A stretch of DNA of 64,000 bases from Nemertoderma westbladi. Its lineage: Eukaryota > Animalia > Xenacoelomorpha. Under the pieces are notes generated by a model. It was not told the DNA's origin, ran no database searches, and saw only the letters and a list, made by a program, of their open reading frames with translations. Location of the stretch: NCBI GenBank assembly GCA_032718475.1, contig JAUCBJ010006371.1:40395-104394 (forward strand). The letters are read 5' to 3'. Shown piece after piece: positions 12,950 to 64,000 of the stretch (positions are counted from its first letter, which is position 1; the number at the start of each line of letters is the position of its first letter). The position numbers were made by a program, and so were the translations under genes.

Positions 12950-13630
12950 TCAACCCAAACCATCTCACCCATCAACCCAAATCATCCCCCCACCAAACCA
13001 ACCCATTTCTCCCACCAAACCAACCCATCTACCCCACCAACCCAACCCACCCCTCCTACCAACCCAACCCACCCCTCCTACCAACCCAACCCATCCCTCC
13101 CACCAAACCAACCCAACCCATCCCTCCCTCCCACCAAACCAACCCAACCCATCCCTCCCACCAAACCAACCCATCCCTCCCACCAAACCAACCCATCCCT
13201 CCCACCAAACCAACCCTATCTCTCCCACTAAACCAACCCAACCCAACCCAACCCAACCCATCCCTCCCACCAAACCAACCCATCTCTCCCACCAAACCAA
13301 CCCATCTCTCCCACTAAACCAACCCAACACATCCCTCCCACCAAACCAACCCATCCCATCCCTCTCCACCATAACCCGACCCATCCCTCCCACCAAACCA
13401 ACCCATCCCATCCCTCTCCACCAACCCAACCCATCCCTCCCACCAAACCAACCCATCTCTCCCACTAAACCAACCCAACCCAACCCATCCCTCCCACCAA
13501 ACCAACCCATCTCTCCCACTAAACCAACCCAACCCATCCCTCCCACCAAACCAACCCAACACATCCCTCCCACCAAGATCCAACGGATTCTTCCTTCCAG
13601 CCCCCCCCCCCCCCCCCCCCCTCTCCCCCT
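12950..13630. repeat. C/A-rich low-complexity tandem array (CCAAACCAACCCATCCCTCCCA-type) ending in poly-C
   Basis: Directly visible. The G-rich minus strand explains the Gly/Trp-rich spurious ORFs. Confidence 0.9.
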
Positions 13631-18000: not shown

Positions 18001-21000
18001 AGGGCTGTACAGAAAGTGTAGCGTGGTTTATCTGCACTCGGGGGTATACGAACTTTTAGGCGCCCCCACCTACACACCCATATGTTAACAACGCCTCTGG
18101 GACTGTTAAAAACAGAGGATTCAATTAAGAAAATTTAACATTACTTAACTACATTAACTTCAGCTTAATTAACTTAACATAACTTCAGATAAACCTCTCC
18201 TGTCGCCATGTGACTATGGGAAGACAAAGTGCCGCGGTGTCAATACCAACGGGTTTAATTGAGAATTTAACATTGATGCGGGATATTAATTCGCCAAGGC
18301 GGGTTTTGCGTCGAGTTTCCCCCCTGTCTCTTCGGATCAGTACTTAAGGTTCTTAACAGCATTTGAGTGCCATTTAATTAATACGTTTAATGTTTATTGG
18401 TTTGATGGTAGCCGCGCGCATTAAACCAAGAATAGGTGAACCAATTTGATAAAGTAGCAATGGTTATCATATATCAGGCCAGACGTTAAGGTTCCTCACA
18501 TTATTATTCACAAGGTGTTATTTGCCATGGGGAAGTTAAGTTGCTCGGAATGTGTGACGAATTGTGGCGTTAATAACCCAAGTTGTAAATGAGTTGGATC
18601 TTCTAATCTGACTGCATATGGTGTCCCGCTGTCATCTAATCGTTTTCTGTCGCAAAAGCGTCTTTCATCACCACAGGGGGAGAGAGATACATGTGGTGAT
18701 AAAAACACTGGCCATATGGTTTGGTTTAGTTAGAATTACAACACATAATGTACTCTTGGAATATTTTTGATGGGAATTTGCCTTACCAGAATAGAATACT
18801 AAACTTATCATGTCACTTCAATTCTCCATCAGCCACCTTTGTAAATATATTGGGTGGCAATATGCGAAGCAGACTTTGCTGAGCTGTTCTAAAAAATAAC
18901 TAATTTACTTCATGGAAAATAATATAATGTATCGCTTATATGATTACATCAAGTTTTCTTTGAGACGGGGTGTAACCCGGATTTTCAATGAAACTTAATA
19001 CTGGAATTATTTTAATTAATTATTTTGCTTCACGGTTTACACATCTCATATTTATTTTATTTTAATAAACAATTATTTGTCGAAGAAATATTAATCTTAA
19101 ATAACCATCTTCTCCAACCTCCTGCCTTTTGCCAATCATATTGGGAGGGGGGGGGGGGGGGGGGGGGTGCTTGGGTTTGTCACAAAAAAAATGTGAAAAA
19201 TGTTTCAATTTCCAGGACATTATTTCAACCTAAAACAATATGAAACTGTCCATGTGAGTACAGTACAATTTTAAACGGTTGCAGTTTTATTTTTTGGAGT
19301 AATCAGCTGTTATTTGCATCGATTTTCCCCGGGAGAATGATTAATTTTTATTGCGTCAAGACAAGAGTCCCCCATGCCCATATCTATACTTACCAGTTAT
19401 GGCATACTTAAAATGTGTGGCGTTAAATTAAAACCAGCGTAGTAAATTTACTAGTTCGAAATTTAATTATATACCGTTTAATTTTTCGCTACATATTTTG
19501 GTGCATTTAATTGCGATCGTAAATGCTTAGCTAGAATTTAACGAGAACAAATGCCAAGAATCACTCCCAAACAACATAAATTGAATTATATTGCTGGTAA
19601 AGTTGACAGCTTCGTACACTTATCTGGAACTTACTTGTGACATCAATTTGGCATCAATTCTTTAACTTGCATATAATGGGATTTCAGAATTATTGCGATG
19701 GGTTAGGGTGTAAAATGCGTTTAACGCAAGAATGCGGGTGGATTTGGGTAGATGTTTTCAATAATACGTGTTGTAATGTAATATAATGTAATGTATATGT
19801 TTACAATAAACGGTATATTCAGAGACGGGTTCGGAGGGGGGGGGGGGGGGGGGGGGGGGGTGTATCCATACAACCTACCTTTGTATATCCCTCACGGTTG
19901 TCCCCCGGTTGTCCCACTCAACCCACCTTTATATGTCCCGCGCGGTTGTTCCACTCAACCCACCTTTGTATGTCCCTCACGGTTGTCCCCCGGTTGTCCC
20001 ACTCAACCCACCTTTATATGTCCCGCGCGGTTGTTCCACTCAACCCACCTTTGTATGTCTTTCACGGTTGTCCCCCGGTTGTCCCACGCAATCCACCTTT
20101 GTATGTCCCGCGCGGTTGTTCCACTCAACCCACCTTTGTATGTCCCTCGCCGAAGTCCCACTCAACCCACCTTTGTATGTCCCCCACGGTTGTCCCCCGG
20201 TTGTCCCACTCAATCCACCTTTGTATGTCCCACGCGGTTGTCCCACTCAACCCACCTTTTGTATGTCCATCGCCGAAGTCCCACTCAACCCACCTTTGTA
20301 TGTCCCTCACGGTTGTCCCCCGGTTGTCCCACTCAATCCACCTTTGCATGTCCCATGCGGTTGTCCCACTCAACCCACCTTTGTATGCCCATCGCCGAAG
20401 TCCCACTAAACCCACCTTTATATGTCCCTCACAGTTGTCACCCGGTTGTCCCACTCAACTCACCTTTGTATGTCCCGCCCTGTTGTCCCACTCAACCCAC
20501 CTTTGTATGTTCATCATGGTTGTCCCACTCAACCCACCTTTGTATGTCCCTCACGGTTGTCCCCCGGTTGTCCCACTCAACCCACCTTTTTTATGATCCT
20601 CAGGGTTGCCCCCCGGTTGTCCCACTCAACCCACCTTTGTAAGTCCCACCCTGTTGTCCCACTCAACCCACCTTTGTATGTCCCTCACGGTTGTCCCCCG
20701 GTTGTCCCACTCAACCCACCTTTGTATGTTCCTCAGGGTTGCCCCCCGGTTGTCCCACTCAACCCACCTTTGTATGTCCCACCCTGTTGTCCCACTCAAC
20801 CCACCTTTGTATGTTCCTCAGGGTTGTCCCCCGGTTGTCCCACTCAACCCACCTTTGTATGTTCCTCACGGTTGTCCCACTCAACCCACCTTTGTATGTT
20901 CCTCAGGGTTGTCCCACTCAAGCCACCTTATTATGTCCCTCCCAGTTGTCCTACTCAACCCACCTTTGTATGTCCTTTCCAGTTGTCCCACTCAACCCAC

Positions 21001-24000
21001 CTTTGTATGTCCTTTCCAGTTGTCCCACTCAACCCACCTTTGTATGTCCTTTCCAGTTATCCCACTAAACCCACCTGTGTATGTCCCTCCCAGTTGTCCC
21101 ACTCAACTCACCTTTGTATGTTCCTCAGGGTTGTCCCACTCAAGCCACCTTATTATGTCCCTCCCAGTTGTCCCACTCAACCCACCTTTGTATGTCCTTT
21201 CCAGTTGTCCCACTCAACCCACCTTTGTATGTTCCTCACGGTTGTCCCAATCAACTCATCTTTGTATGTCCTTCCCGGTTGTCCCACTCGCACTCAACCC
21301 ACCTTTGTATGTCCCTCACGGTTGTCCCACTCAAACCACCTTTGTATGCCCCTCACGGTTGTCCCACTCAACCCACCTTTGTATGCCCCTCACGGTTGTC
21401 CCACTCAACTCACCTTTGTATGTTCCTCACGGTTGTCCCAATCAACCCACCTTTGTATGTCCCTCACGGTTGTCCCACTCAAACCACCTTTGTATGCCCC
21501 TCACGGTTGTCCCACTCAACCCACCTTTGTATGTCCCTCACGGTTGTCCCACTCAAACCACCTTTGTATGTTCCTCACGGTTGTCCCACTCAACCCACAT
21601 TTATATGTCCCACCCGGTTGTGCCACTCAACCCACCTTTATATGTCCCTCACAGTTGTCCCACGGTTGTCCCACTCAACCCACCTTTGTATGTTCCTCAT
21701 GGTTGTCCAACTCAACCCACCTTTGTATGTCCTTCCTTTCCAGTTGTCCCACTCAACCCACCTTTGTATGTTCCTCACGGTTGTCCCCCGGTTGTCCCAC
21801 TCAACCCACCTTTGTATGCCCCTCCCAGTTGTCCCACTCAACCCACCTTTGTATGTTCCTCCCGGTTGTCCCACTCAACCCACCTTTGTGTGTCCCTCCC
21901 AGTTGTCCCACTCAACCCACCTTTGTATGTTCCTCACGGTTGTCCCACTCAAGCCACCTTTGTATGTTCCTCACGGTTGTCCCACTCAACCCACCTTTGT
22001 ATGTTCCTCCCGGTTGTCCCACTCAACCCACCTTTGTATGTTCCTCACGGTTGTCCCACTCAAGCCACCTTATTATGTCCCTCCCAAGTGTCCCACTCAA
22101 GCCACCTTTGTATGTTCCTCACGGTTGTCCCACTCAACCCACCTTTGTATGTTCCTCACGGTTGTCCCACTCAACCCACCTTTGTATGTCCCTCCCAGTT
22201 GTCCCACTCAACCCACCTTTGTATGTTCCTCCCGGTTGTCCCACTCAACCCACCTTTGTATGTTCCTCACGGTTGTCCCACTCAACCCACCTTTGTATGT
22301 TCCTCACGGTTGTGCCACTCAAGCCACCTTATTATGTCCCTCCCAAGTGTCCCACTCAAGCCACCTTTGTATGTTCCTCACGGTTGTCCCACTCAACCCA
22401 CCTTTGTATGTTCCTCCCGGTTGTCCCACTCAACCCACCTTTGTATGTTCCTCACGGTTGTCCCACTCAAGCCACCTTATTATGTCCCTCCCAAGTGTCC
22501 CACTCAAGCCACCTTTGTATGTTCCTCACGGTTGTCCCACTCAACCCACCTTTGTATGTTCCTCACGGTTGTCCCACTCAACCCACCATTGTATGTCCCT
22601 CCCAGTTGTCCCACTCAACCCACCTTTGTATGTTCCTCCCGGTTGTCCCACTCAACCCACCTTTGTATGTCCCTCACGGTTGTCCCACTCCACCCACCTT
22701 TGTATGTCCTTTCCAGTTGTCCCACTCAACCCACCTTTGTATATCCCTCCCAGTTGTCCCACTCAACCCACCTTTGTATGTTCCTCACAGTTGTCCCACT
22801 CAAGCCACCTTTGTATGTCCCTCCCAGTTGTCCCACTCAACCTACCATTGTATATTCCTCACGGTTGTCCCACTCAACCCACCTTTGTATGTTCCTCACG
22901 GTTGTCCCACTCAACCCACCTTTATATGTTACTCACGGTTGTCCCACTCAACCCACCTTTGTATGTCCCTCCCAGTTGTCCCACTCAACCCACCTTTGTA
23001 TGTTCCTCACGGTTGTCCCACTCGCACTCAACCCACCTTTGTATGTCCCTCCCAGTTGTCCCACTCAACCCACCTTTGTATGTTCCTCACGGTTGTCCCA
23101 CTCAACCCACCTTTGTATGTTCCTCACGGTTGTCCCACTCGCACTCAACCCACCTTTGTATGTTCCTCACAGTTGTCCCACTCAAGCCACCTTTGTATGT
23201 CCCTCCCAGTTGTCCCACTCAACCTACCATTGTATATTCCTCACGGTTGTCCCACTCAACCCACCTTTGTATGTTCCTCACGGTTGTCCCACTCAACCCA
23301 CCTTTGTATGTTCCTCACGGTTGTCCCACTCGCACTCAACCCACCTTTGTATGTTCCTCACAGTTGTCCCACTCAAGCCACCTTTGTATGCCCCTCCCAG
23401 TTGTCCCACTCAACCTACCATTGTATATTCCTCACGGTTGTCCCACTCAACCCACCTTTGTATGTTCCTCACGGTTGTCCCACTCAACCCACCTTTGTAT
23501 GTTCCTCACGGTTGTCCCACTCAACCCACCTTTGTATGTTCCTCACGGTTGTCCCACTCGCACTCAACCCACCTTTGTATGTTCCTCACAGTTGTCCCAC
23601 TCAACCCACCTTTGTATGTTCCTCACGGTTGTCCCACTCAACCCACCCTCCCAGTTGTCCCACTCAACCCACCTTTGTATGTTCCTCACGGTTGTCCCAC
23701 TCAACCCACCTTTGTATGTTCCTCACGGTTGTCCCACTCGCACTCAACCCACCTTTGTATGTTCCTCACAGTTGTCCCACTCAAGCCACCTTTGTATGTC
23801 CCTCCCAGTTGTCCCACTCAACCTACCATTGTATATTCCTCACGGTTGTCCCACTCAACCCACCTTTGTATGTTCCTCACGGTTGTCCCACTCAACCCAC
23901 CTTTATATGTTACTCACGGTTGTCCCACTCAACCCACCTTTGTATGTCCCTCCCAGTTGTCCCACTCAACCCACCTTTGTATGTTCCTCACGGTTGTCCC

Positions 24001-27000
24001 ACTCAACCCACCTTTGTATGTTCCTCACGGTTGTCCCACTCAACCCACCTTTATATGTTACTCACGGTTGTCCCACTCAACCCACCTTTGTATGTCCCTC
24101 CCAGTTGTCCCACTCAACCCACCTTTGTATGTTCCTCACGGTTGTCCCACTCAACCCACCTTTGTATGTTCCTCACGGTTGTCCCACTCAACCCACCTTT
24201 GTATGTCCCTCCCAGTTGTCCCACTCAACCCACCTTTGTATGTTCCTCACGGTTGTCCCACTCAACCCACCTTTGTATGTTCCTCACGGTTGTCCCACTC
24301 AACCCACCTTTGTATGTCCCTCCCAGTTGTCCCACTCAACCCACCTTTGTATGTTCCTCACGGTTGTCCCACTCAACCCACCTTTATATGTTACTCACGG
24401 TTGTCCCACTCAACCCACCTTTGTATGTCCCGCCCAGTTGTCCCACTCAACCCACCTTTGTATGTCCCTCCCAGTTGCCCCACTCAACCCACCTTTGTAT
24501 GTTCCTCACGGTTGTCCCACTCAACTCACCTTTGTATGTCCTTCCCGGTTGTCCCACTCGCACTCAACCCACCTTTGTATGTCCCTCACCGTTGTCCCAC
24601 TCAACCCACCTTTGTGTGTCCCTCACCGTTGTCCCACTCAACCCACCTTTGTGTGTCCCTCACGGTTGTCCCACTCAACTCACCTTTGTATGTCCTTCCC
24701 GGTTGTCCCACTCGCACTCAACCCACCTTTGTATGTCCCTCACCGTTGTCCCACTCAACCCACCTTTGTGTGTCCCTTACCGTTGTCCCACTCAACCCAC
24801 CTTTGTATGTCCCTCCCGGGCTGCCAGGTGTAACCCCGTCATCCCGTTGTTATCCCGTTGCGATCCATTTATCCGCCGATCGAGCAGCGCGTTGACCACA
24901 TCCAGACTCCCCTGGATGGCCGCCACACCGAACACGAATCTCCCCTCGCCGTCCACCTTATCGTTGGCGGCACCGCGATCCAACAGGGTCGCCACCACGT
25001 CAGCGTGTCCCATCGACGCGGCGGCGAGTAACGAACTCCGTCCGTTGTTATCCGTTCGATTGATATCGGCTCCGCGGTTCAGTACCGACTCGACAACGGG
25101 GTTGAGTCCCTCGTAGGCGGCGAGTAGCAGCGGACTCATTCCGTCTGCGTCGACCTGATCGACAGCGGCGCCGCGGTCCAGGAGGGAGTCCACGATCCGG
25201 TGGTTCATAGCGTGGTGGCTGAGCGCCGCCACAGACAGGGCCGTGCGGCCGTCGGCGTCCGCGTGTCCCAGACGGGCGCCTGCATCCAGCAGCACCCCCA
25301 CCACCGCGGGACGGCCCATATAGGCTGCGGCTATGAGCGGGGTTCGACCCTCGGTGTCGCTGCTGTTAGCGTCCGCCCCCGCCGCTAGCAGCCGCTCAAC
25401 CGCGGTCACGTGACCCGCCCAGGCCGCCGCTCGCAACGCCGTACGTCCGTCGCGGTCCGCCGTATCTACCACAGCCCCGTTGCTCAGAAGCAACTCAATG
25501 ACGTCATCGTGACCCCCCCAGGCGGCGGCCCGTAACGCGGTCCACCCCTGATCGTCCTGTTTGTCCACGGCGATCCCGTTCGCGATGAGCAGCCCCGCGA
25601 TCTCGCCGTGCCCCCGATTGGCCGCCAGATGCAGCGGGTTGTCCCCGGCGGAGTCCGCCGTATCCACATTGGCTCCCCGCTGGAGGAGTAACTCAACGAC
25701 CTCCAGGTTACCCGCGAACGCCGCGTTGCACAGCAACGTGCGCCCGTTGTCGTCCATCTCGTTGACCATGGTGCCGCTGTCCAACCGCATCGCCATGGAG
25801 TTTATGGGATCCGGACACTCGGGTCCCGGGTTCGACCCCCCCTCAGCACCGGGGAGTTTCGCGCCGCACTGCAACAACATGCTGACAACCCTGTCGTCGT
25901 GGTAACGAGTTTGCAGACAGTCGGCGACAGGGCCGCCGGACCACAGCAACCACATGGGTATATGTAGGTCCCCGTCGAATGGGAAATCTATCTGTGATTC
26001 TAGCAAATCGTAACAGAGCGATTGGAGTTGTTTGTGTTCTAGAATGTCGATGCTAAGTGTGGCGTCGCCCCTCAGTGTGGCGTCCCCCCTCAGTGTGGCT
26101 GCCATCGCGAGCATGGCGTGGCCTTCCCGTTTGTGGCACAGATACTTGGGGGTGCAATGCTTCACGTCTAGCAGCCACTCCGCGAAACTATTGTGGAAGA
26201 TCTGTATGTTCCCATGGTGGGTTGTTTGTGTGACGAGTTTGAACACGGAGTCCATGAGTTTGTCGAAGTGTGGGCGGGTGAGTGAGGTGTTGCGAGACGA
26301 GACTGCTATGAACAGTAGGTCGGGGGAGACGGGAGACTGACAGGCGAGCAGCACGTTGAGTAAGGGCTGCACACGGGGAAAATGTTTCCTCGGGAAGATC
26401 CTGTTGCAGAGCCACAAGTAGAACCCGTTGAGAGTCCCGGGGATGTCCCTGATGTCTTGGAGACTAATAAACCGATCGCAGACCCCATCCAATACCTTCT
26501 CCAAGTAGAGAACACAGCCGTTACTCTTAATCAACAGTTGGTTTAACATTTCCGCGGTTTCTTTGCTCAACTGCCGTCTCAATGTCTCATCTTTATCCAA
26601 TCGCGTTAGAATGTATTGCTGAATGTCTTTGACAACGTTGGATTTACGCAGATCGTCGAGGGTGATTTTCCTGAAGCCGCTGAACAATCGGGAGATGTGT
26701 TTCGTGTGGCGTCGGGATGTGCACACTAGGAGTAGCCACGGTGGCAGTAGGTTGTAGTGGGTGGCTAAGAGTTCGGCGATGCTACGACTTTGATTGGTTT
26801 GTTGCACGGAACCAGATGAGTTGGATCCCAAGGGTTGGTTCCCCAGGGTACACTCATCAACCCCGTCTATAAGAAGGAAGCAGTTTCGCGTGGGCGGGTT
26901 TAGAGTGAGCAATGGAAGTAGGACGCCGGATCTAAAAGCCTCGTCCACGTTTTTAGCGCATTCGGTGGGTTCTAGAAGGGCTTTAATACTGGGTTCAGAT

Positions 27001-45919: not shown

Positions 45920-46396
45920 TAACGCTCTTTGGGAGGTAACGCTCTTTGGGACCTAACGCTCTTTGGGACCTAACGCTCTTTGGGACCTAACGCTCTTTGG
46001 GACCTAACGCTCTTTGGGACCTAACGCTCTTTGGGACCTAACGCTCTTTGCGACCTAACGCTCTTTGGGACCTAACGCTCTTTGGGACCTAACGCTCTTT
46101 GGGACCTAACGCTCTTTGGGACCAAACGCTCTTTGGGACCTAACGCTCTTTGGGACCTAACGCTCTTTGGGACCAAACGCTCTTTGGGACCTAACGCTCT
46201 TTGGGACCTAACGCTCTTTGGGACCTAACGCTCTTTGCGACCTAACGCTCTCTGCGACCTAACGCTCTTTGGGACCTAACGCTCTTTGCGACCTAACGCT
46301 CTCTGCGACCTAACGCTCTTTGGGACCTAACGCTCTTTGGGACCTAACGCTCTTTGCGACCTAACGCTCTCTGCGACCTAACGCTCTTTGGGACCT
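45920..46396. repeat. 17-bp minisatellite (TAACGCTCTTTGGGACC), ~27 copies
   Basis: Directly visible tandem unit. Confidence 0.95.
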
Positions 46397-47821: not shown

Positions 47822-50800
47822 TCAATTGAATTCATCGTCACTGTGATCAAAAACCTCCCCGGTTCTGGAGAGCATATAATTATCCATGTCGATACTCTTA
47901 CAGTTGTTAATAGCGTAGCGCAGTCGGTTGGCCAGCATCCCCTGACTCGAGTAGGACGGCAACCTGAGTTGGAAGAAACAAGTCTGCGCCGTAGGCAGCG
48001 AGTCCAGTTCCCGATCCACTCGGATTATCTGAAACCGCTGACTGATATCCGCGATGTTGACGGGAAGACGCGATCTCCCGGAAACGAATCGCATAAATAA
48101 AACCCGTTCGTCGTTGTTAAACTCCGTCAGCGTCTGCCAAAACCACAGGATCAAGTGATGACCTTCTGAGAGCTCGCGGTAACGGACAACAGATTTCAAC
48201 ATGTCCAACGAGATATCGGGGACGCCGCAGACCAAACGTTCAATGTACGCGGAAGTGACCAACGAGAAGAGAGGAACCGGCACTATCCAACTCATCCCGA
48301 GACGCACCGCGGCTACCTGTCGATCCATCTCGTGCAGGCGATAGTGCAGCACCCTCTCGACGTACTCCTTGCGGTTGTGGTAGGTGAGCGGGATGCTGTG
48401 GCCCCCCGGGACCACGGGCACAAACTCTCCGGTCGCGCTCTGCCCCTCGAAGGAGTCCAACGGAATCACCTCGGAGAAGGAACTCGCGGTGACTCCGCTC
48501 CGATCGATGCCGGAGACGCTCCGCAAACTGCGGATGTACATCGGGTCAACTTCCTCCAAGTCCTCAACGGAAACGTTCATACCCGCCAACTGCTTCCAAG
48601 TCAGTTTGGCTAAATGTAGATCGATGGGTTTCTTGGTTCGTATGGCGACGCCCAATAAAATTCCGAGGAATTTAAACATCTGTAGATCTTCCTCGGTGGA
48701 TAACGCCGGATTCAATAAATACTTGTCGCGGAAGTTACCGGGGTCGGCCAGCGAGTTAGGAGTTGGGATTAGTATGTTGAGGTCACCGCGATGCAGTTCC
48801 GAACACATCTCTGTCATGGTATCATCGAACACCCCCCCAGCGTCGTCAGCACCTTCTCCTTGCAGTTTCACCTTCCATGCGCGGGACGGCAGTCGTAAAT
48901 CATCAGCTTTCAACGACAGTATCTGCCGGGCCAGTTGTACGAAAATCGGCTTGGCCTTCCGACCTCGGGGCACCAGCCGCCTCACAGTGACCTGCGGCCC
49001 GTAACTCCTTCCCTGCACCATGGTGCGCCCGATTGCGCGCACTGAAGGTAGTTGGTAGACCCGGGGCGCCAACAGTGGGCGCACTGTGCCACCGATCAGA
49101 CCCCCGACGGTGTAGGCCCGCTCTAAAGACGGATCCAAATCTGACTGCAGACACATGAAACGCCAACTCGCCGAGACTAGATCAGAGAAATGTAACAGCG
49201 TTCGCAGTCTAGAACGGATAGACTCGATGGGAATGTCTAATAGGCATGTGTACTGCTGGGGAATGGATTTGGGCAAACCGAGGAGGATTGGCGTGGCATA
49301 GCCCCGCCGTATCGGGCTGGGCGGTGGAGAAGTCCAGGCCGCACTGTGGGTTCGGCCAGCGGCTATCTGACGGATACCTTTCCCACTGAGCGGCGCGATA
49401 AGCACCGGTTCACGTTGGAATGCCACGTGGCCCAATCCCAACTGGCCGTCCGAGTTGTTTCCCCACGCCCAAATGTTCCCGTTGGAGCACAATACTAGCG
49501 TGTGATCGGCGCCCACAGCGATATCCTCCACGAAGGAGTTGAACAAGGCAGGAATTTGTTGAGGTTTATTTTGAGTTCGACTTCGACCTTCAGTAACCCC
49601 GGTGAATCTCTCCTGTCCGAAGGAGAAAACCCTCCCGTCTTTAGTGAGAGCGACGGTAAACTGAGTTCCACAAGCCAGCTTCTTGATTCCTTGATTCTGG
49701 AGAGTTTCTATTCGATGAGGAGTCGATTTCGCTATAGAGTTACCCAATCCCAGCTTGCCATAGTCCCCGTCACCGCAGGCCCACACGGTCAATCCATCTT
49801 GGCTGCAACACACCGTATGGTTGAGACCACAGACAACCTGGCCAACTTGTTGACTGACTAAGGCTTCAATACGTTCGGGAGTTTTCTTATTGGCCGTTCC
49901 GCCATGTCCTAATCTTCCATAGTCACCGTTACCAAACGTGAATACACTACCGCTAGATGTGGTGACAGCGCTATGTTTAAACCCACAAGCCAAATCAACA
50001 ATATCTTCCCCTCGGAGCGCTTCAATCTGCCGAGGTCTCCTCTGCCTATCACTATTACCGTGGCCCAACTTCCCGTAATCACCGTCACCCCAGCTGAAGA
50101 CCTCGCCACTGTCGGTCAACGCTAACGAGTGACCGTCAGAACCACAAGAAGTGGCCAGTTTCACAACCACAAATCCCTGAAGAGAGGATACTGCAGTCAG
50201 TGTGTAAAGGTCATCAGAATTACCTTGTCCGAGTCGACCATAGGACCCCTCACCACATGCAGAAACTGTGCCGTTTGACTGTATTGTAAAGGTACAATTT
50301 TGACCGCATATTAATTGTTGGGCATTAGAAAACAAAGCACGCTGAGTGGGTAGTGTCATAGGACCCATTGATGTGGATTCTGCGAGCTGCCCGTGCCGAT
50401 TATCCCCCCAAAGATAAACATCTGACTTACCACCAATCATCCATTCCTCCGGGTGCTTACTGGACCATTGCATTATTTGTTCATCCATCTGCAGTGTCCA
50501 TATGCTGTTGTCCAATGGACTCTTGCCTCCTTCTGAGATGCGCTCAAGGAAAGGCACATGAAATGTTGATGGAAATGGTTTTCTATGAGTTAGAGAATCG
50601 CACGCGGAAATACAAGTAGCCAGTTGGAACAGCCACGCGAAATCCTTATGATCATCAACTGCGTCATGGGCTAATTGGTGGGGTGGCTTTCTTGGTTTCC
50701 CTATAATTTGATCGAGGCGTAAACTCACAGCGATAGTGCACAGCGATTTAAAATAATCGGTGTGAGTGAGTTGGTCCCCTGATGTAATTAAGTTTTTCTC

Positions 50801-53800
50801 ATAGTTGTATTGGCTTTGAAGCATCAACGGCAACAATGACAGAAGCTTTGTCAGCCAAGGAACATCCTTGAGTCCAAATACATTTAAGTTGGCCAATTCA
50901 TGGCGACACTTATAGAGGATTTGATTAGCCTCAAGAATGGCATCATCTACATTTACTAACAATAAATCACTGGAGCTCGACAACCCAACAGCTAATTGTG
51001 ACTCTTGACACCACGCAGATACAGCATTCGATTCGCCCTGAAGAGTTTGCACTAGGCAACCATCATACATTGTCCATATATTGCACAATCCCTGGTCGCA
51101 ACATGTGACCAGTAGAAGAGAGTCACTGCTAAATTCAACAGATCTAATAGGTTTTGAATGGCCTTTAAGAGACATCAGATGCGATACACAGACACAACTT
51201 GGAGTCGACTTGGAAATGGATTCCGAAGAACCTGGAGAAACATCATTGGATACAGTTTCTGCACTTAGCACATCTTTTGGCAACTTTGGTGCAACATTCC
51301 ACAACTCAACACCACCACTCTGCAATGCAACAGCTAAAAGAAAATTAGCACAGATGTGGTGTCCTTTTGAAATAACTGGGGACCACCGAAATGCCATAAT
51401 CGGAGTTAACAATTCGATGTGAGAAGCTAAGATCCACATATCAATTCTTTGATGCCAAATCCTCAGCACAGGATCACCATCAGCTATACTGGCAAGGTAT
51501 ACACCACTAGGGTCCCACTCCAAACCAATAATTCTTGTTTTGTGACCTTGAACAAAAAATGGTCCTGAATTTTGTACACAAAAATATTTGGAACAAAACA
51601 TTATACCACCATCATCATAACCAACAGCAAACCATTTATCTTCATCATACCAAGCCAATTTGCTAACTGCAATACCAGCCCTAGTACAAGAGTCCATCTC
51701 AACAGTATGATATGTTGATGCATCAAATATTTGAATAGATACCACTGTACCATCATCCCGACCTACAAGCAACTGATCTTTGCACGAAAGCGAGCTTTCC
51801 GAGAACAGTCTGTGTTGAGGCCAAGCAACATCATTAACTTTGCATGGCTGAGTCTCACTGTGACTACAACCGCCTGTTAAAGACCAGATGTATATGTCGT
51901 GGCCAGCTAAACCAGCCAGAAGTTTGCCATTGGAATTCCAGTAAAGCTTTTGAATTTCATGACTTAATTCATCCCCCATTTGCCAGCACTGGAACAATGT
52001 TGGTTTTTTTGCACCAACCCAGACAAAAACATTACCGGTTGAATCAACAGAAGCAAGCCGATTGCATGATGGATCAAACTGACAATCATAAATATTTCCC
52101 TGGTGACCTTCGAGTTTTAATGTTTGAAATTGAGGTAGATCTTGCCTACAGTCATCAACAGAATGTCCACCAGAATCATTGGCAAATAAAACAGTAAGGA
52201 ATTGAATTAAATGCCCTACAGCCCACTCCCTGTAGCCGACAGCCAGTTCACTCAAGCAACATGCGGATAAACAATTGCATATTAACAAAAGAGAAGACTG
52301 TTGACTCCAGACCTGAGTCACAAATGCTTGGCTTTTTTGGCATGACCCACACATTGCTTTGTCCATTTGTTTCTGGGCGAATTTACCAAGTAAAGCTATT
52401 AGAATTTTAACAACAACAAACCCAACATTTGATTCCTCGGATTGACCTGCAGGGCCACATGATGCTGTTAGCATAAGCTCCTTAGTACAAAGTTGCAGCA
52501 ACAGGTGATGGGCCACATCATCGGTCGAGGCCAGAGAAATGATGGTCATGCCAAGGTTATCCATCAGTTGTGGGGTCCGCAAACTCTCCACAAGAGATAC
52601 CAGTTTTACCAAAATATTAACATCAGCTAAACCAATGCTTTCTACACTGGTTGCTAAACAACAAGGAGGCTGGCCAATTGAAACTACGGATAAAACCTGG
52701 AGAATTGTACTCCGTGCTATTTGAATTTGAAAAGTTGATCCGATGTTATGCAACGCAGATAGTCGATCGTTAATGATATATTGTGTGATTGCCTGATCGC
52801 CCAATGTCAGTTTTTGCCCAGAAAAATTATGTGGTATGGTAGATGGTGTGATTGGATCTCGTGTATTGACAGCTTGTTGACCTAAAGGATCCACATCGAC
52901 ATTAAACATGACTGGAGCGGGTAGACGTGTTGAATCACTTGGATGAGACATGGAATTCATTAAACCCAAAAGTGCCTCTGAATCTCCATCCTTGTGCAAT
53001 TGATTTAATTGGTCCGGGGAGAGATCTGATGTGTGACCCTCTTCACCCAATTCTGCAGTCTCTTCACCAACTATGGAATTCTGACCGAAATAATTTGTCC
53101 TACATAAGGGGCACAACAAATAATAAGGTGTACCAGTGCCACAAGTTCCACCGAACCATCCATCAACATAAGTGCCAGTGCTGCGATAGCCATGACGGCA
53201 CGAAGGATTTCCACACCCTGGATGGGAATTTCGCATATGAGCATTAAACTCTTCAACAGAGATGTTACACAGTTCACACATGACGGCAACATCACCAACA
53301 ATTGGATCTGATATTCTGTCATCGTTCCAAAGGTCTCCATTATCTTCCACATTGTCAGATGAAGATACTCGATGAGGAGGTGAATCCGGTGACAAAATAA
53401 TAGCGGCTCGACGAAGATTTCTTTGGGCAAATTGGTGTGGATTACGGGGTTCTCGGCATGGTAGTGGTGGTGGAGTCATCCGACTAGTCCATACCCTCCT
53501 GGCAGGAGGTCGTCGCATCATTGTCAAGCAAACTCTTGCTTGAGGCAACACTTCGCGACAACGTTCTTCCAATGAATTTGGAACGGAATCATCACCAGGG
53601 CAAAATAAGGCTTCATCCCTATGATCTACAGTTGAATCAACTACAGGATGCTCCAGTAAATATGTAGCAACCATGTTAGCGCGGTGAGCTGCACTGCTGT
53701 TATCAGCACCCGTTGCGACAATCGCTTGTTGGATATGTTGAACAGAGAACCCCATTTCTAATAGTGGAACCGCAAAATCAGGCAATAACAAGGACTGTGA

Positions 53801-56800
53801 TGTTGATGACATTGGCATTAACGGTTCATAAGGGATGCTGCATGCCTCCGGTGCATCTTGAAAACGAGTACTATAGATTGTAGCATTAGTATCCATACCA
53901 GTGTCTCGTGATTGAGCTGGCGCACCAGTATCACAGCCAGCATTATGGCGTCTTCGTTGTGGATGTGCTACACTGAAATGCTGTTGTGGAAGTCTTTGCC
54001 TGGGTGGTAATAAAATAGTCTTATGCTCTTTAAGATCAGGGGGTGGCTGGGCTTTTCCAATTAAGCAGTGCAATATGTTCAAAGAACTTTCAAGCTCATG
54101 TACAGGAACTTCACGCTTTATAGTAGTGGATTCAATAGCTTTGTTAACCAACACTCTCATTGATGTTTTTAAAGCGCTCTGCATTTCAACCACACTTTCT
54201 TCTTGGCTATCTCGTAAGATAACTTCTGAGAAATGGCTACTTGTTAATAACCCTGTTAAAAACTTCAATATTCCTACTTCAAGGTACATTAACATGAATT
54301 CTTTAATTTCATCCAGAGTGTCAGCTGTTGCTATAAACTTTGTTGAAAAGGGAAATTGCTTAGGCCTCACATCTGAACCATCGTTTTCTTGACTATCTGA
54401 TAGTTTTGACAAATTCTGAGAAATATCTGTAAGAGAAGCATTCATCACTGTCTGTTTAGTTTTGGAACTAAATAATGTAACAAGCATATTTATCATAGGT
54501 GGTGTCATACCTTGGAGATGACTGAAGTCAAATGCAGGGTGTTTTATGATTTCTAGAGATTGCAAAGGTTCATCCACAAACATGCGATTTGAAGAACTAA
54601 CTGATCGGTCATCCCATTGAACTTTTCCGGTAGAAGAACCATGCTTGATAACACCCAACAAAACACCCTCTCTACCAGTATCCCTCTGCATACACCGACA
54701 TCCCGCCTTTAGACCTCTGTCAAGTCCGCCACATAGGGCCAAAACAGGAAAAAGCATCTTCATAAAATTGTCCGTAACATCTGTGGACACTGCCTTTGTT
54801 CCGCGGTCAGTTTCGAAAGTGTCTATGTAAGATACACAGTTGGCCAAACGTTGGATTAATTTATTACAAATAAGGGATGACCATGATTCACTGTGGTTGA
54901 TTAAATCTCGCATAACAGCTATGTAGTGATCAGCAAGTGCAAACATTTTAGGTGAACAATGCGGTTCTCCAGAAATATAATCACTGGGAGATTCTGAGGC
55001 TTCAAAATCGCTAATTTCCACTTTCTCACCAGGAGAGTTGCTGTAAAACATAACACACGGGTACAGAATATCATTGGCCTCTAGATTATCAAAGGCGACT
55101 CTTAAATCTTGATTATTTTTTGCAAAGCTTAAGGTTCTTGCGTTTGTGTCTACCTCAACATGTATGCAATCTCCTTGCGTATAACATGGAAACTGTACAG
55201 GTACACTGATTTCCCCACCATGATACAAATTGCCACTGTAGGCACGATATAACCACATATCATACGTAGACCGGTGACTGTAATCTTGGACAGGGAATCG
55301 GGATACACCAATACAAGTACCTTCATTGCCTGGATTTTCTTTGAGAATGTTAAAGCACCACCGTGACTTACCTGATGGCAGGGGTGTTGCAGTCATACCA
55401 TAGGCCTTGCCAATGGTCGAATGCATAATACAATTACTTGGTTGAATAAGACAATTAACTGACTTATTAGAATCAAAATATGTATGCTGTAACAGATAAT
55501 TTAAACCGTACTCGGAACCGAAGCTATCTATATTAGGGGTCCAGATAGCATGATAGATGCTATCTAAAAGTATGTCCACGAAGTTAGATAATAGAGAATC
55601 ACCACTAGATGAATACATTACTAATTCACCAACTTTCTCAAAGAATAATTGACGCAGCAGATGGGTAGCTAAGAGTTTGGTTCTCAAGAGTTTTACACCA
55701 TTATATGAAGTTTGTCCAATTTTCATGAATAAGTTGATCCACTTACTAGAAGAAAGGCGAGTTTTAAAAACGTTAAACAAATTTGACAATCCAGTTAAAA
55801 ATACTATAAAATTGCCCACAGATTCATCCGAATTCAACACAGTTGTAGCAGTTAAAGTGTGTCGACTCGATTTTGAAGTATTCGTCGGTGGCGTCTTGAT
55901 ATAAGTAATCAAACTTTCCACATGCGTCATCAATAATGTTTCAATAAAATCGATCTGAGCTACATTGTTTGAAGTCTCGTCCAGTAGACCAGAAGTGAAT
56001 ACAACGAGATGGAGGAGAACCTTGGCAACGGCGAGGAGACATGGCAAAGGTTCCAAGGAGGCAGCCATAAAGGGGCTAAGAACCTGCTTATTCATTTCCA
56101 GAGGCAGCCGACAAGATAACAAAACAAGTGGCTTCAATAAACCTACTGAAAACGCTAACTTCACATCTTGGCATTGGTACTTGTATGTAAGTGCGCAAAT
56201 GCAGGCCATTAACATCGGGGTTGAATGCAAAGATGGGTGGTCCTCAAGCTCATTGTCAATAATGTTTGTAATATGTGAAAATATTTTATTAATCGTTGAC
56301 TCTATCAAAAACAAGAACTCTCTTGGGGCGCATTGAATACCAGCCAGGTAATGGCTGTACACAGTCACACCATCTTCTGAGTGCAGTCCGACACTGCTCA
56401 AACCAAAACAGCCATACATGAATTGAAGTTGAGCAGAATCCACCAAGTCATGCAATGAGAGTGTATCATCGTCATCATTTTTAGTCAATTCCCCTTTACT
56501 CAAAATCTTTTCAATTTCTTTAAGTGCATCAAGACGAATTTCCGCTTTGGTACATTGTTCATCAATGGCACTAGCAACTAGCATTACATTAGGTGGGGTA
56601 CCGGCTTCATATTGGCTAGGTTTCTCGAAATAATCTAAATGTGCTAAAGCGAATGTAACAATATTGTTACATATAGCACGGAATATATCGGCTAATGAAT
56701 ACTCAACATTGTTGTCGAAAGAAGTTGTGGATGCGGCATCGCAAATACTGGAGTTGGAAAATTCTTGTGTCAGTAGCTGGTCGGTGGGCAAAATGTGTGG

Positions 56801-59800
56801 CTGAATACACGTGAGTAAGAATATTGATTGGCATGCAGAAAGTCTGCATTGGCTCTCAAAATGGCTGTCACTTTTACTTTCTAAAACATAGAGACTAGCC
56901 AATCGCTGTCTTACAACAAATGCACAATGGTAAACATATAGTAAACATGATGGCAATGGCTTCGAAGAAGACGTGCTAGGCCCATCCACATGACCGCCGT
57001 ATTGCGTTGTATCGGGTATGTAGTAACTTTCACTAGCGACATCAGCCAACCCGGTGTGCATGAGTATGGCAGCGAATACACAACGAGTAGCTCCATCCAA
57101 TAACGTATCAACGGGGAAACACGCCATTGGAGTTTCCATGTTATTATAAGCGTTTAATAGGTTTTGCCAAGATTTCGCTTGGTTTTGCCCAGACAAACAA
57201 ATATCACGATAGATTTGTGGCAACTTGATGGCACTCATGTCTGTACCGCTATCAGAAGCACCAAAGCTCAACGAATCCAAATGTATATTTTGCACATTCT
57301 CGAATTCCTTCACAGCATCGTTAAGGGGTAAACTGAGACCTTTACTAAAGAGACGACATTCCAGCAGTCGGTTCATACAGGTCGGTTCCAGCAGCGAATG
57401 CGTATAGAGTTTACCACGGATTGCTCGACCTACAAGTAGAGAAGTACATTGTTCAAGTTTGTCAAGCCAGGAAAAAAATGAAACATCCACGACTGCATTC
57501 ACTGAATGTCTCATTTGATAGTCGTTACCGTTGAATACGCCAGTTTCTGAAGCCGGACAAAGACATTCATCGAAGCTCAATCCTTGAATCTCATGCAACA
57601 AGGCGGCTCTCTGGTATGCTTCATCTACCCCCATATTGCTGCTGAAAGTGGGTTTACAAATCTCTTCATGGCCTTCATGAACAACTAGGGATTCGATGAC
57701 AATTACACGTTTAAAAACATTGTTGATACAAACTAATAATTCTCCGAATGAAGGTAACAATGGAGCCAATGTGTGAGCAGGCACCAACAGTAAAGACTGT
57801 ACCGCCAATAGTAACAACATTCCACTTGGTGATTCAAATAATATATCGCGTAACTTTCTAACTATTTGAAAGTTGAGCGGCGCTGAAAGTACGCCTAGAG
57901 TAGCGTTATATACAGTGGATGCGTTAATGATAAGCATATGAACGTACTTATGCACCAAACTGCCAGTAGTAGTAGCTAATTGATTTTCCTTAAAAGTAAG
58001 TAAATGACTGGCCATTAGGTGTCTTTGCATATTTAGAAGGAGTTTGTGAATGAGACAAGTTGCGGAATTTGCAGTTTGTAAAAGAACATTGTCATCAAAT
58101 GTTGAGCCGGGGGCAGCAGCGGTGGTTGTGGGATCAATAGCAGGGAGTGAAGATCTACGATCAGTGATTCTTAATCTCAGTCTCTTCACAGTACAAAACG
58201 ACAGGTTTTTTAATAATATTTGCAGCAAACTTTCGGCCAAATCAGAAGTGGTCTCAGAATTAACGCTGGAAACTAGCCCTAAAACGGTAGCAACCTTGTC
58301 GTTGTCTTGAATGCTATTCAGCACCAAATTCAGTTGGGTTATTTGACCGCGAGTCAGCGACGCCCAACCTTGCGGTTCATGGGGTAACAAGCTGTGCAGC
58401 AGTTCCAGACGTTCCTTTACCGGAGGTAACAGAAGCAGAGCGCCAACCGAGAGAACGCTGCTGATATGGTGATGTACCGGTTCGGCGCGTGGCAGATCCA
58501 GCAGGCGGAATAACAGCAGACGTATCGGTGCCGATAAATCGCCGATCACTTGGGAGTTGGCGCTACCGGTGGACGCCAACGAGAGATGACTGCCGAGGAG
58601 ACGGAGAGTTAGCATAGCGAAGCGAGTCTGCTCGTCCGACGAACGGAACACATTGCCTGAGGACTCCGGCTCCGCCAAGGTTGCCCAATATGTCTCCATG
58701 AAGGAGTGCAGCACCCTGAAGGTGTCCCGATGAAGGTCCACGCAGTAGTGTTGGTGTAGGGCGACCACCTGGCGGTCGGACGGCACTGCGGTCCACACTA
58801 TCGTGTGACTAGACCCCGCGGACACCTGTTGCACGTCGACATCCTCGAGACCAATATTTACCTTGGAGGGTTGAGTCACGGGACTCACTGTGTGACCTTG
58901 GCCACATTGACCCATAACGTTGTTTCCCCAAGCAAAAACCTAACAAAAATTCAATAATCTTATTATAAATGTCTATTAAAGAAAAACGTGAATAAAATTA
59001 TATTTGGATAAATGGTATTTCGGGATTCTAGTGCTATTAAGTAGAATAAAAAATCAAAACGCAGTTTTTGAAACATTTCAAAATTTTTTATTTGAATTCA
59101 AGTATAATTGTATTTCGGACATATTGATTGAATGTTTGAACTTTTTGTCATTTGGGACATTTCGTTTTATAACTTGAAAATGAATATAGATCTTCGACAA
59201 CGCCACTTGATTTGTCAACAAGATCGAATGTAAATTGGTCTAAAAAAACAGTTTTTATAGAAGGTTTTGCATTTGAGTCTCTTTGTGGTGCCTTTTATTG
59301 AAAAAAAAACGTCGAATAGAGGCGCCTTTATTCGGCGGCTTATGAATGAGGCAAACAGACCAACCTGAAACGCATCGCTGAGACAAACAACATGACCATC
59401 CCCGCAGGTGATATCGATGACCCTAACACCGTGAAGGACCTCTATGATGCTGGGTTTCAGTCTGATTACTTCGGCTTGGCTGGTCCCCAGACACGGCCCC
59501 CCTCCCCACGAATAGACCTGGCCCGCGGCTGTCAGTGCTAGCGAGTACAGACTGCCAGCACACACCTTTATAACTCCCACACCGGCCAATGTCTCGATAG
59601 GTCTAGGCCGATGTTGTCTGAAACAAATACAATAATAATTGTACCTCCCCTTTCTTTGACACTAACGCCACCCATCCTTGTACAATGTTGTGCATTACGT
59701 GTGTAAAAATCACCGCCTTGTGAAACCTGCCAAACTTTAGTTAAGTAATATTGATGATACACTTCGGGAGATACAGTATACACATTAAATAAAGGGCAAT

Positions 59801-62800
59801 TTACTTGATTATTAGAAGACCATCAGGGCTTCTTGCTGTCAAAAAAAACATCTGTGTGTGTGTGTGTGTGTACGTGTGTGTGTGTGTGTGGGGGTGTGTG
59901 TGTGTGTGTTTGTCTATATGTTTGTACACATTGATATTGGCTTGGAAGGGTAAGAAGTGCTCTACTTCGTGGCCAACTATACAAAGAAATGTATCGATCA
60001 TTTGGGTTCTTATTTCAGTTATTAGTTATTTAAGCTGGTAAAATTTAGCTCATGCTGTATAAAAATTGCACAGGTCGATTCGCCGTGTCCCCTTGATTAA
60101 TTGCCCTGAGACCAGTTTAATTGACCTGACACCAGTTTAATTGCCCTGAGACCAGTTTAATTGCCCTGGGACAAGTTTAATTGCCCTGGGACCAGTTTAA
60201 TTGCCCTGAGACCAGTTTAATTGCCCTGAGACCAGTTTAATGGCCCAGAGACCAGTTTAATTGACCTGAGACCAGTTTAATTGCCCTAAGACTAGTTTAA
60301 TTGCCCTGAGACCATTTTAATTACCCTAAGACCAGTTTAATTGACCTGAGACCAGTTTAATTGCCCGGAGACCAGTTTAATTGCTCTAAGACCAGTTTAA
60401 TTGCCCCGAGACCAGTTTAATTACCCTAAGACCAGTTTAATTAACCTGAGACAAGTTTAATTGCCCTGAGACCAGTTTAATTGCCCTTGAGACCAGTTTA
60501 ATTGCCCTGAGACCAGTTTAATTGCCCTGAGACCAGTTTAATTGCGCTGAGACCAGTTTAATTGCCCTGAGACCAGTTTAATTGCCCTGAGACCAGTTTA
60601 ATTGCCCTTGAGACCAGTTTAATTGCCCTGAGACCAGTTTAATTGCCCTGAGACCAGTTTAATTGCCCTGAGACCAGTTTAATTGCGCTGAGACTAGTTT
60701 AATTGCCCTGAGACCATTTTAATTGCGCTGAGACCAGTTTAATTGCCCTGAGACTAGTTTAATTGCCCTGAGACCAGTTTAATTGCCCTGAGACCAGTTT
60801 AATTGCCCTGAGACCAGTTTAATTGCCCTGAGACCGGTTTAATTGCGCTGAGACTAGTTTAATTGCCCTGAGACCAGTTTAATTGCCCTGAGACCAGTTT
60901 AATTGACATGAGGCCAGTTTAATTGCTCTGAGACCAGTTTAATTACCCTGAGACCAGTTTAATTGCCCTGAGACCAGTTTAATTGCCCTGAGACCGGTTT
61001 AATTGCGCTGAGACTAGTTTAATTGCCCTGAGACCAGTTTAATTGCCCTGAGACCAGTTTAATTGACATGAGACCAGTTTAATTGCCCTGAGACCGGTTT
61101 AATTGCGCTGAGACTAGTTTAATTGCCCTGAGACCAGTTTAATTGCCCTGAGACCAGTTTAATTGACATGAGACCAGTTTAATTGCTCTGAGACCAGTTT
61201 AATTGCCCTGAGACCAGTTTAATTGCCCTGAGACCAGTTTAATTGCCCTGAGACCAGTTTAATTGCCCTGAGACCGGTTTAATTGCGCTGAGACTAGTTT
61301 AATTGTCCTGAGACCAGTTTAATTGCCCTGAGACCAGTTTAATTGACATGAGACCAGTTTAATTGACATGAGACCAGTATAATTGCCCTGAGACCATTTT
61401 AATTGCCCTGAGACCAGTTTAATTGGCCTGAGACCAGAATAATGATTAACTGACCTGTTATTGTCACCGTGACCTAGGCGACCCTGATCACCGCCACCGA
61501 ATGACCATACTGTTCTACCGTCCATTGACACCGCTAAGGTGTGACTAGCACCGCAGGCCACCTGCCCCACTCCAACCAGGTCGTTCACCAGAGTCGGTAA
61601 ACTCTTACTATTAGAGTCACCATGGCCTAATCTACCAGAATCGCCTGAAAAATAATCAATATAAAAAAAACATAACAAAGGAAAGTTGTAGAAATAGGGC
61701 TAGTAACCAAATATCATGGTACCAAATTTATTTGTACTATACATGATAATCAATTCATTTTAATAATTAACAAAGACCTACTGCGCTGTGGCAAGCCACT
61801 AACTCTATCAGCATCTTATCAGCTCACACTTCCTTATCTCAGCAACGGCAGAAATTTGTTTAAATTTGAATGACGGGATGAATTGTCTTGAGAGAGTTAC
61901 ATAGAGAATTACAATTACATTACTCACAAGAGCTTTCGCAAAAAACTGTCAAAGTTTCAAAACTTTTTTGATAGACAAAACCAATTTGGACCTTATCAAA
62001 AACTGCAGAATACTATAATAATATTGGTTCTGAGTATAACGATACCCAACTCACCTTCTCCCCAGGTGTAGAGCATCCCGTCCTCTGTGACCGCAGCCGA
62101 ATGTCTGTAACCCGCACTGATGCACGAAACTACCTTCAACTCTAAAGCGCCTCCGATGAGTTTCGGAACCTTTTGTGTCGTCGAGTTGCCGTGGCCCAGT
62201 TTACCGTAATCACCGTCACCCCAGGAATATACCTGGCCGGTTTCAGATAGAGCTAGTGTATGGCCGTCGGAACCTAGACAAACAAATGGTTCAGATAGAG
62301 CTAGTGTATGTCCGTCGGAACCTAGACAAACAAATGGTTCAGATAGAGTTAGTGTATGTCCGTTGGGAACCTAGACAAACAAATGGTTCAGATAGAGCTA
62401 GTGTATGGCCGTCGGAACCTAGACAAAGAAATGGTTCAGATAGAGCTAGTGTATGTCCGTCGGAACCTAGACAAACAAATGGTTCAGATAGAGTTAGTGT
62501 ATGTCCGTTGGGAACCTAGACAAACAAATGGTTCAGATAGAGCTAGTGTATGGCCGTCGGAACCTAGACAAACAAATGGTTCAGATAGAGCTAGTGTATG
62601 GCGGAACCTAGACAAACAAATGGTTCAGATAGAGCTAGTGTATGGCGGAACCTAGACAAACAAATGGTTCAGATAGAGCTAGTGTATGGCGGAACCTAGA
62701 CAAATAAATGGTTCAGATAGAGATAGTGTATGGCCGTCGGAACCTAAACAAACAAATGGTTCAGATAGAGATAGTGTATGGCCGTCGGAACCTAGACAAA

Positions 62801-64000
62801 CAAATGGTTCAGATAGAGTTAGTGTATGTCCGTTGGGAACCTAGACAAACAAATGGTTCAGATAGAGCTAGTGTATGGCCGTCAGAACCTAGACAAACAA
62901 ATGGTTCAGATAGAGCTAGTGTATGGCGGAACCTAGACAAACAAATGGTTCAGATAGAGATAGTGTATTAGAGACGAATAAATCGTGATTCTAACCCTTG
63001 GAACTGGATATCTTCCTTATGGCTGGCCCGTCTAGGAATGCGAGAGTCTTTGGGGACTGCTGGTTGGTGCTGTCCCCCAGACCAAGTCGACCGTAGGAGC
63101 CCTTCCCGCAGGCCCTCACGGCCCCGTCGTACCCTACCACGAATGTGCAGTATTGCCCGGCCTCTGCGTGACGCGCCCCGTCGAAACTCCCACTCCGTTT
63201 GGGACAGAGAATCTTCTCGATACTCGAGTCGGCGAGTTGGTGGCTGCTGTTGGAGCCCCACACGTAGACGTCGCTGGGGGTCGAACCCGCGGCTTGGACG
63301 CCCGGCTCGGTGCTACAGGTACGCGCGTACATGTTGGCCTGGTCCGCCAGCTCCGAGTGCAGTTGCATCGCGGCGGCGTAGAGCGAACACTCGCTCGAAG
63401 GATCGTCGTTGGGTACGTAACGACTCGACTCCGAGCACCGACCCCCGGACTGTCGGACTTGGATAAATATCTGGGAGAATATTCGGCTCGATATCTGCGA
63501 ATTACATAGGAAATATTATTTTACCTGTCTGCTAAAAGACACAGCCCTTGATAACTCAAATTAATTGGGGAGTTATATGGTTGATCGCGAACTCTGGAGG
63601 TGATGCATCCTAGTGATGTGGACGATGATGTACATGAACCTACCTACATCATGATAATAGGAAAACTAAACCATAAAAAAAAGTAAACAAACTTACCGTA
63701 TTGCCCGCCGATGCATGACTTTTCAGTATCACTTCAATCCATTCTAGAATATAGTGTAGAGAACCTCTGTGACACGCTATACCTAGCAGCAATTCTGCAC
63801 ACAATCGTCGTCCCTGTATCAAATTAATTTAATTTCTCATTAAAATTAACTCACATTGTCACTACAGATCAGAAGTTTAATTAACTATCCCCAACTATTA
63901 ATTAATTATTAAAACTCACCAGATTATCGGCACAGGATGAAGAAACCATCGCAGTTTTGAGGAAGGAGGAGACCTGGTCCAAACAATCTACAGCGATACC
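47822..64000 (-). CDS. HERC1: Giant HECT E3 ubiquitin ligase HERC1 (RLD1, SPRY, UBA, Cys/His-rich segment, WD40, RLD2, HECT); 5' end outside the window
   Basis: Exons 64000-63920, 63813-63697 ([11 protein letters not shown]...[12 protein letters not shown]), 63494-62996 ([12 protein letters not shown]), 62273-62055, 61644-61455, 59617-59365 and 58939-47822. RCC1 repeats, SPRY ([17 protein letters not shown]), and a HECT domain ending [16 protein letters not shown]...IDMDNYML. Confidence 0.93.
59853..59909. repeat. (TG)n microsatellite in a HERC1 intron
   Basis: Directly visible. Confidence 0.9.
60095..61438. repeat. 20-bp minisatellite (AATTGCCCTGAGACCAGTTT), ~65 copies, starting ~15 nt into a HERC1 intron
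   Basis: Directly visible. The donor GT is at 61454-61453. Confidence 0.95.
62242..62968 (-). repeat. 48-bp (44/49-bp variants) minisatellite whose unit spans a HERC1 intron/exon acceptor junction; 15 acceptor copies
   Basis: Sense unit CCATTTGTTTGTCTAG|GTTCCGACGGCCATACACTAGCTCTATCTGAA. The last unit is the true exon start ([11 protein letters not shown]) at 62273. Confidence 0.95.

Follow-up and report, generated by a model that had tools for sequence, protein, structure and literature searches.

Fifteen tandem copies of an acceptor-side splice junction in a HERC1 intron of Nemertoderma westbladi, probably a young mirage minisatellite

The DNA analysed here, called the window throughout, is a stretch of 64,000 nucleotides (nt) of Nemertoderma westbladi (assembly GCA_032718475.1, contig JAUCBJ010006371.1, forward-strand positions 40,395 to 104,394), and its minus strand carries a HERC1 gene with a tandem array of splice junctions in one intron. 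The named best matches of the long downstream frame are all HERC1 (about 40% identity, hemichordates at the top), and the Pfam domains of the gene comprise RCC1, SPRY, WD40 and a C-terminal HECT domain. A seven-exon model that uses the acceptor at 62273 reads through 4158 codons up to a single stop, and together these results bear out the identification of the host gene in an initial annotation made from the sequence alone. The GT-AG introns of the model measure 106, 202, 722, 410, 1837 and 425 nt, and the gene is intact, with at least part of it transcribed and spliced. The features of the locus are as follows.

47822..64000, minus strand: HERC1, with its 5′ end beyond the window; assigned by homology, Pfam domains and reading frame, with the first two introns spliced in sequencing run X4
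64000-63920, 63813-63697, 63494-62996, 62273-62055, 61644-61455, 59617-59365 and 58939-47822, minus strand: the HERC1 exons, the first two introns taken from X4 and the others from homology and frame
62996..63494, minus strand: exon upstream of the array, in which the first RCC1-like domain begins; an X4 contig is spliced at its acceptor, 63494
62969..62995, minus strand: donor and unique intron sequence; donor GTTAGA, which matches the consensus at 5/9 bases, fewer than any of the gene's five other donors in the window
62242..62968, minus strand: tandem array (minisatellite) in the HERC1 intron; Tandem Repeats Finder (TRF) period 48, 15.4 copies, 93% matches, score 1189
62933..62934, minus strand: AG of the first acceptor, whose use would give an intron of 63 nt and run into an early stop
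62322..62370, minus strand: 49-bp unit before the penultimate acceptor; read as exon it gives a stop or a frame shift
62274..62321, minus strand: last full 48-bp unit, with the canonical acceptor AG at 62275-62274
62055..62273, minus strand: exon downstream of the array, 219 nt with the last acceptor; closing donor GTGAGT, 7/9

The repeat unit consists of about 14-16 nt of intron end, including the AG, followed by about 32 nt of the start of the next exon, a composition proposed in the initial annotation and recovered by both TRF and a scripted search. The script also returned exactly the fifteen exon starts claimed there, all on the minus strand, at 62932, 62888, 62840, 62791, 62743, 62695, 62651, 62607, 62563, 62515, 62466, 62418, 62370, 62321 and 62273. 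Of the 14 full units, seven measure 48 bp, four 44 bp and three 49 bp; the final partial copy is the genuine HERC1 exon start, and a higher-order repeat of 145 bp (48+49+48) recurs inside the array in the TRF output. The TRF score of the interval 62242-62968 is far above chance. Between the donor at 62995 and the last acceptor the intron has 722 nt, of which 695 (96%) are repeat-derived; the short unique remnant after the donor is real and comes to 27 nt (62995-62969) rather than the roughly 28 nt first given. Whole units between the first and the last acceptor add up to 659 nt, in line with the proposal that the intron grew by junction duplication. The AG is retained at all 15 acceptors, 14 of them extra copies lying between the donor at 62995 and the acceptor at 62273, and each AG is followed directly by GT, the first two bases of the exon.

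These properties place the array with the minisatellites described as mirages. The repeat unit spans an exon-intron boundary of its host gene and the extra intronic copies all keep the AG of the splice signal; judged by these two structural features of its sequence, the array is a repeat of a known type. In amphioxus, the BflGb6 gene carries three to six tandem copies of an intron 3′ end with the exon start, and reverse-transcription PCR (RT-PCR) suggested regular splicing (Ebner et al. 2010, PMC3087553); further amphioxus mirages are reported in PGBD5, Adh and troponin C (PMC3902484). As far as these accounts go, the HERC1 array resembles the amphioxus cases (BflGb6, BflGb9, Adh3, troponin C, PGBD5) in its intronic tandem copies, its many intact AGs and its signs of array turnover, and also in that donor-type cases occur in the same genome as acceptor-type ones. 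It differs from BflGb6 in having 15 copies of 44-49 bp against three to six copies of 150-160 bp (units in Adh3 are 10-72 bp), and from the amphioxus mirages as described in that the intron contributes no more than about 14-16 nt to each unit and has kept just 27 nt of unique sequence. Normal splicing was checked by RT-PCR in amphioxus, whereas the HERC1 array is known from DNA.

The junction unit is present in multiple copies in read data, and thus not only as an assembly error. In three DNA runs from two studies (X1, X2 and X3), contigs break into short pieces of the junction unit at both ends of the array. Across five array pieces, contig depth, which is no copy number, tracks the multiplicity of their 31-mers in the window (r = 0.99 in X1 and 0.98 in X2); the assembly may itself derive from one of these studies. 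X1 has a depth per copy of 7-8, against 4.1 and 10.4 in the flanks, and X2 one of 17-25, against 12.5 and 17.5. In X3 the depth per copy is 6-10, against flanks of 22-26.5, and the piece at 62750-62801, found in X1 and X2, is absent; such a hole proves nothing. X3 is recorded as the same sample as X2, yet three flank bases differ, and the X3 pattern gives a weak hint of a shorter allele. The initial annotation had named genomic read support as a check; contigs of two studies show the junction unit at multi-copy depth. The exact count and the order of units rest on the assembly, as the array is bridged by no contig and the diagnostic bases of the 44- and 49-bp units occur in no aligned piece.

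Thirteen of the 15 acceptors lead to an early stop, and the frame stays open only from 62273, the canonical acceptor, and from 62321, which adds 16 residues. The earlier division into frame-preserving and frame-breaking units is refined by the acceptors at 62651, 62840 and 62888, which keep the overall frame and nevertheless run into a stop inside the array. The description of the 48-bp unit as an open 16-codon frame, and of the 62321 acceptor as adding 16 residues, is accurate; the resulting exon would measure 267 nt, 48 more than the canonical one, and is open to the normal stop. Only 62273 restores the canonical blade; as had been proposed, the canonical protein needs the last acceptor, and for it the array copies belong to the intron. 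In alignments with a hemichordate HERC1, the score is 477 bits with 17 gap positions for the canonical model and 435 bits with 33 for the form with 16 additional residues. Both anchor motifs around the junction are found in 151 of 240 proteins, of which 150 have identical spacing after the junction and one has a single extra residue; a long insert occurs in none of the 151, which are mostly vertebrate and hence not independent cases. The frame would likewise be kept by splicing to an internal AG that precedes the exon start by 27 nt, where a pyrimidine tract is absent.

The need of the canonical protein for the most distal AG does not make the locus as unusual as first supposed, since both the amphioxus mirages (PMC3087553) and the human CBS 844ins68 allele offer precedents. 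In the latter an intron/exon junction is duplicated, and splicing strongly favours the distal copy and yields normal mRNA (PMC2630376). The HERC1 array shares with CBS c.844_845ins68 the duplication of a junction, and differs from it, as that allele is described, in having 14 extra copies rather than one extra copy of 68 bp. The rule that the first AG after the branch point is usually taken, with which the initial annotation contrasted the need for the most distal one, covers close acceptors; those more than 12-20 nt apart are reported to have, typically, separate branch points and pyrimidine tracts (PMC9225289), so that use of the last copy is not forbidden.

Several features of the locus suggest what selects the last copy. 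Donor strength was taken as the number of matches to a nine-base consensus, not as a trained score, and by this count the donors flanking the array have 5/9 matches upstream and 7/9 downstream, in a gene whose six real donors range from 5 to 8 of 9 and all have G at +5. An exon of less than 250 nt is obtained only with the last acceptor. A weak upstream donor and a first option of 63 nt would disfavour pairing across the intron, and the strong downstream donor would favour the nearest acceptor across an exon of 219 nt. Intron-defined pairing is reported to prefer the upstream acceptor, a preference that is reduced under exon definition, with exon-defined events shifting away from the upstream acceptor (PMC9225289). 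The weak upstream donor, the strong downstream donor, the 63-nt first intron and the exon that falls below 250 nt only with the last acceptor thus point to exon definition as the likely selector. On this analysis, and with a probability of roughly 70%, the array would be a young acceptor-type mirage minisatellite whose 14 extra acceptors are mostly unused, the last copy being chosen by exon definition and normal HERC1 being made. Leaky splicing to upstream copies would give early stops and the products would likely be cleared by nonsense-mediated decay.

A number of observations weigh against this interpretation. The branch-point scan covered the 45 nt upstream of each acceptor and looked for YTRAY, the branch-point consensus motif. 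The last acceptor, 62273, has no such match, and its AG-free zone is just 25 nt long. The acceptors at 62321, 62466 and 62791 have CTAAC at -28, owed to the 49-bp variant, and AG-free zones of 47 nt, and 62932 has a CTAAT match at -36. Predicted RNA accessibility does not single out the last acceptor among the copies. Two HERC1 introns are short (106 and 202 nt), so that intron definition, which favours an upstream acceptor, may operate. Even under exon definition the upstream preference of 3′ sites is described as reduced rather than abolished (PMC9225289), and the splicing rules cited here rest on human data. Finally, no RNA-derived contig and no protein of the organism crossing the junction was found in X4, X5 or the protein searches.

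The RNA-side data behind that last point are as follows. Among the runs listed for the locus none is recorded as RNA, which says nothing about expression. A contig of run X4 covering the first HERC1 exons skips two GT-AG introns; the run had been guessed to be DNA, and this intron-skipping contig on 63231-64000 makes an RNA library likely. The contig departs from the normal path of the gene at 63231, in the first part of the first RCC1-like domain, and does not cover 62256-63179; what follows is 27 nt matching 49245-49271, about 14 kb downstream, at the contig end and with three shared bases at the switch, and the jump is likely a chimera. Run X5 has no match on 62060-63150. The protein searches for the organism's own HERC1 product gave best identities of 41%, 82% (among the best 120 of 184 matches) and 78% (16 matches).

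The branch point deserves separate mention. A unit with only about 14-16 nt of intron end implies that the branch point of any of the acceptors comes from exon-derived sequence or lies far upstream, and a need for an exon-derived branch point is not described in the available parts of the accounts of the amphioxus mirages or of CBS. RNA structure was considered as a selector of acceptors and rejected, the canonical acceptor being predicted no more open than the others. In the 49-bp units a single-base variant changes the internal AG so that a branch-point consensus arises. Two variants fall on the same G, and selection for the new branch point or against the internal AG was therefore considered; it was set aside, as a repeat hit is not rare at about eight substitution types over 48 sites, by our own estimate.

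Among the alternatives, substantial use of the penultimate acceptor, 62321, alongside or in place of the last one, survives best and is nonetheless unlikely. HERC1 would then carry 16 more residues in an RCC1 blade, with the order of unit variants setting the mix of isoforms and the loss to decay. The frame from this acceptor runs open to the normal stop, the 267-nt exon is only 48 nt longer than the canonical one, and the acceptor has both the CTAAC at -28 and the 47-nt AG-free zone that are absent from the canonical acceptor. Set against this are the 0 of 151 homologues with a long insert, the poorer alignment of the longer form to hemichordate HERC1, and the fact that the branch-point variant also precedes two acceptors that lead to stops, so that it shows no sign of selective placement.

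A broader version is slightly less probable still, namely that the array works as a dial of splicing. How many units an allele has, and in what order, would set the shares of canonical HERC1, of HERC1 with 16 more residues in the first RCC1 propeller and of destroyed product, and the canonical acceptor would depend on a recruited exon-derived branch point, the original having been deleted. The array would gain greater importance only if it were true that upstream acceptors are used in an allele-dependent way.

It is also doubtful, and more so than either of these, that the array impairs the gene, with proximal acceptors, 62932 first, capturing most splicing, the products being degraded, a minority of transcripts alone being productive and the allele being mildly harmful and tolerated. 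The acceptor at 62932 has the best local signals and lies nearest the donor, and an upstream acceptor is reported to be preferred in intron-defined events (PMC9225289). The spliced X4 contig, which ends short of the junction, is neutral here. Yet the frame of 4158 codons is intact, the array is found in runs of two studies, and the published mirages are reported without aberrant mRNA (PMC3087553, PMC3902484).

Stepwise or recursive splicing, put forward in the initial annotation and dropped here as very improbable, would proceed unit by unit, each AG-GT regenerating the donor for the following step. Recursive splicing is known from long introns with strong regenerated donors. The HERC1 array resembles such cases in that GT directly follows the intronic AG, which it does at all 15 acceptors, and departs from them in its intron of 722 nt and in the quality of the donors. 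The regenerated AG/GT donors have 3/9 consensus matches, none of them after the GT, against 5-8/9 for the six real donors, and the GT is merely the first two bases of the exon. Moreover, steps of 44-49 nt fall below the smallest modelled intron of the gene (106 nt), and the junction of the finished mRNA has the identical sequence and would have to escape being cut again. The least credible alternative, that the array is largely an assembly artefact, draws on the want of a spanning contig and of the 44- and 49-bp diagnostic bases in aligned pieces, and on the lower depth per copy and one missing variant piece in X3, and runs against the break-up of X1, X2 and X3 into junction-unit pieces at both array ends and the X1 and X2 depths that follow the window multiplicities, with X2 pointing to as many copies or more.

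The preferred reading, of a mirage minisatellite spliced at its last copy, suggests a simple origin. An initial duplication of 48 bp across the intron/exon junction may have been amplified by slippage or unequal exchange, with the 44- and 49-bp variants and the recurring 145-bp block as its traces; that this three-unit block recurs is what either process would lead one to expect. The original end of the intron was likely lost by deletion, since the first copy of the array, 27 nt behind the donor, is partial and exon-derived.

The position of the intron was compared with 80 metagenome loci. In 16 of them the HERC1 motif is unbroken at the junction. Four near-identical contigs (L027:2398-2998 and L028-L030) have an ordinary intron of 601 nt at the same position and phase, and at L001:1-140 the acceptor lies one base away. 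The other 59 of the 80 loci, which either lack the search motif or resemble HERC2 or other RCC1 repeats, were left uncounted. The position of the intron is thus patchy among animals. No comparable array appears among the TRF matches listed for 18 metagenome loci.

Intron gain was considered as an alternative origin. In the model of Rogers, cited in PMC3087553, an intron arises by tandem duplication of an AG/GT proto-splice site. The HERC1 array shares the tandem duplication that includes an AG-GT and differs in that no new intron is formed and the unit includes a real intron end. Gain of this type was rejected, because by eye the intron start matches the downstream exon start over no more than its first three bases and the intron end does not match the upstream exon end, and because the HERC1 gene of another animal has the ordinary 601-nt intron at the same position.

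The HERC1 array would be one more clean case of splice junctions seeding minisatellites, and an example of the tolerance of genes for many decoy acceptors. With 96% of the intron made of repeat and a unit too short to hold a branch point, it is a small natural experiment in which exon definition and the recruitment of branch points can be tested in an invertebrate, its 15 acceptors being almost the same except, in the main, for where they lie and for a single branch-point base.

The window holds eight long arrays, of which two span a splice junction, five apparently do not and one starts at the window edge. The arrays besides that in the HERC1 junction are as follows.

19878..24819, minus strand: array of the donor type, spanning a junction of an ANKRD50/TANC-like gene, with a 37-bp unit of the last ~15 nt of an exon plus the donor
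1-1406, 5255-6996, 12951-13576, 17718-17988, 45916-46396 and 60097-61437: six further long minisatellites with units of 17-35 bp, several of which fill most of an intron

The ANKRD50/TANC-like array has 115 AAAG/GT copies, of which 95 read GTGGGT and five GTGAGT, the last copy reading GTAGGT; its first donor is at 24800 and the next exon is at 17336. A direct match is the 37-bp variable number of tandem repeats (VNTR) in intervening sequence 7 (IVS7) of human F7, which is likewise on the donor side and whose identical pseudo-sites are reported to be functional and normally silent (Borensztajn et al. 2006, PMC1557585). The HERC1 array is like the F7 VNTR in that its boundary element spans an exon/intron junction. 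Unlike F7, where by that account the first exon-adjacent site on the donor side wins, it is an acceptor-side mirror image. The genome seems prone to intronic minisatellites in which junctions are sometimes caught.

The 20-bp array at 60097-61437, which lies in the next-but-one HERC1 intron, was considered as a decayed donor copy and rejected, 14.6% of 3000 random stretches of the window scoring equally. A single exon of 11.1 kb (47822-58939, minus strand) holds the final 3705 codons of HERC1, and the 5′ part has six introns within 5 kb, a layout that looks like the result of 3′-biased intron loss. In the HERC1 intron at 63696-63495, the stretch 63548-63602 matches several unrelated contigs in X1-X3 and is likely a small dispersed repeat.

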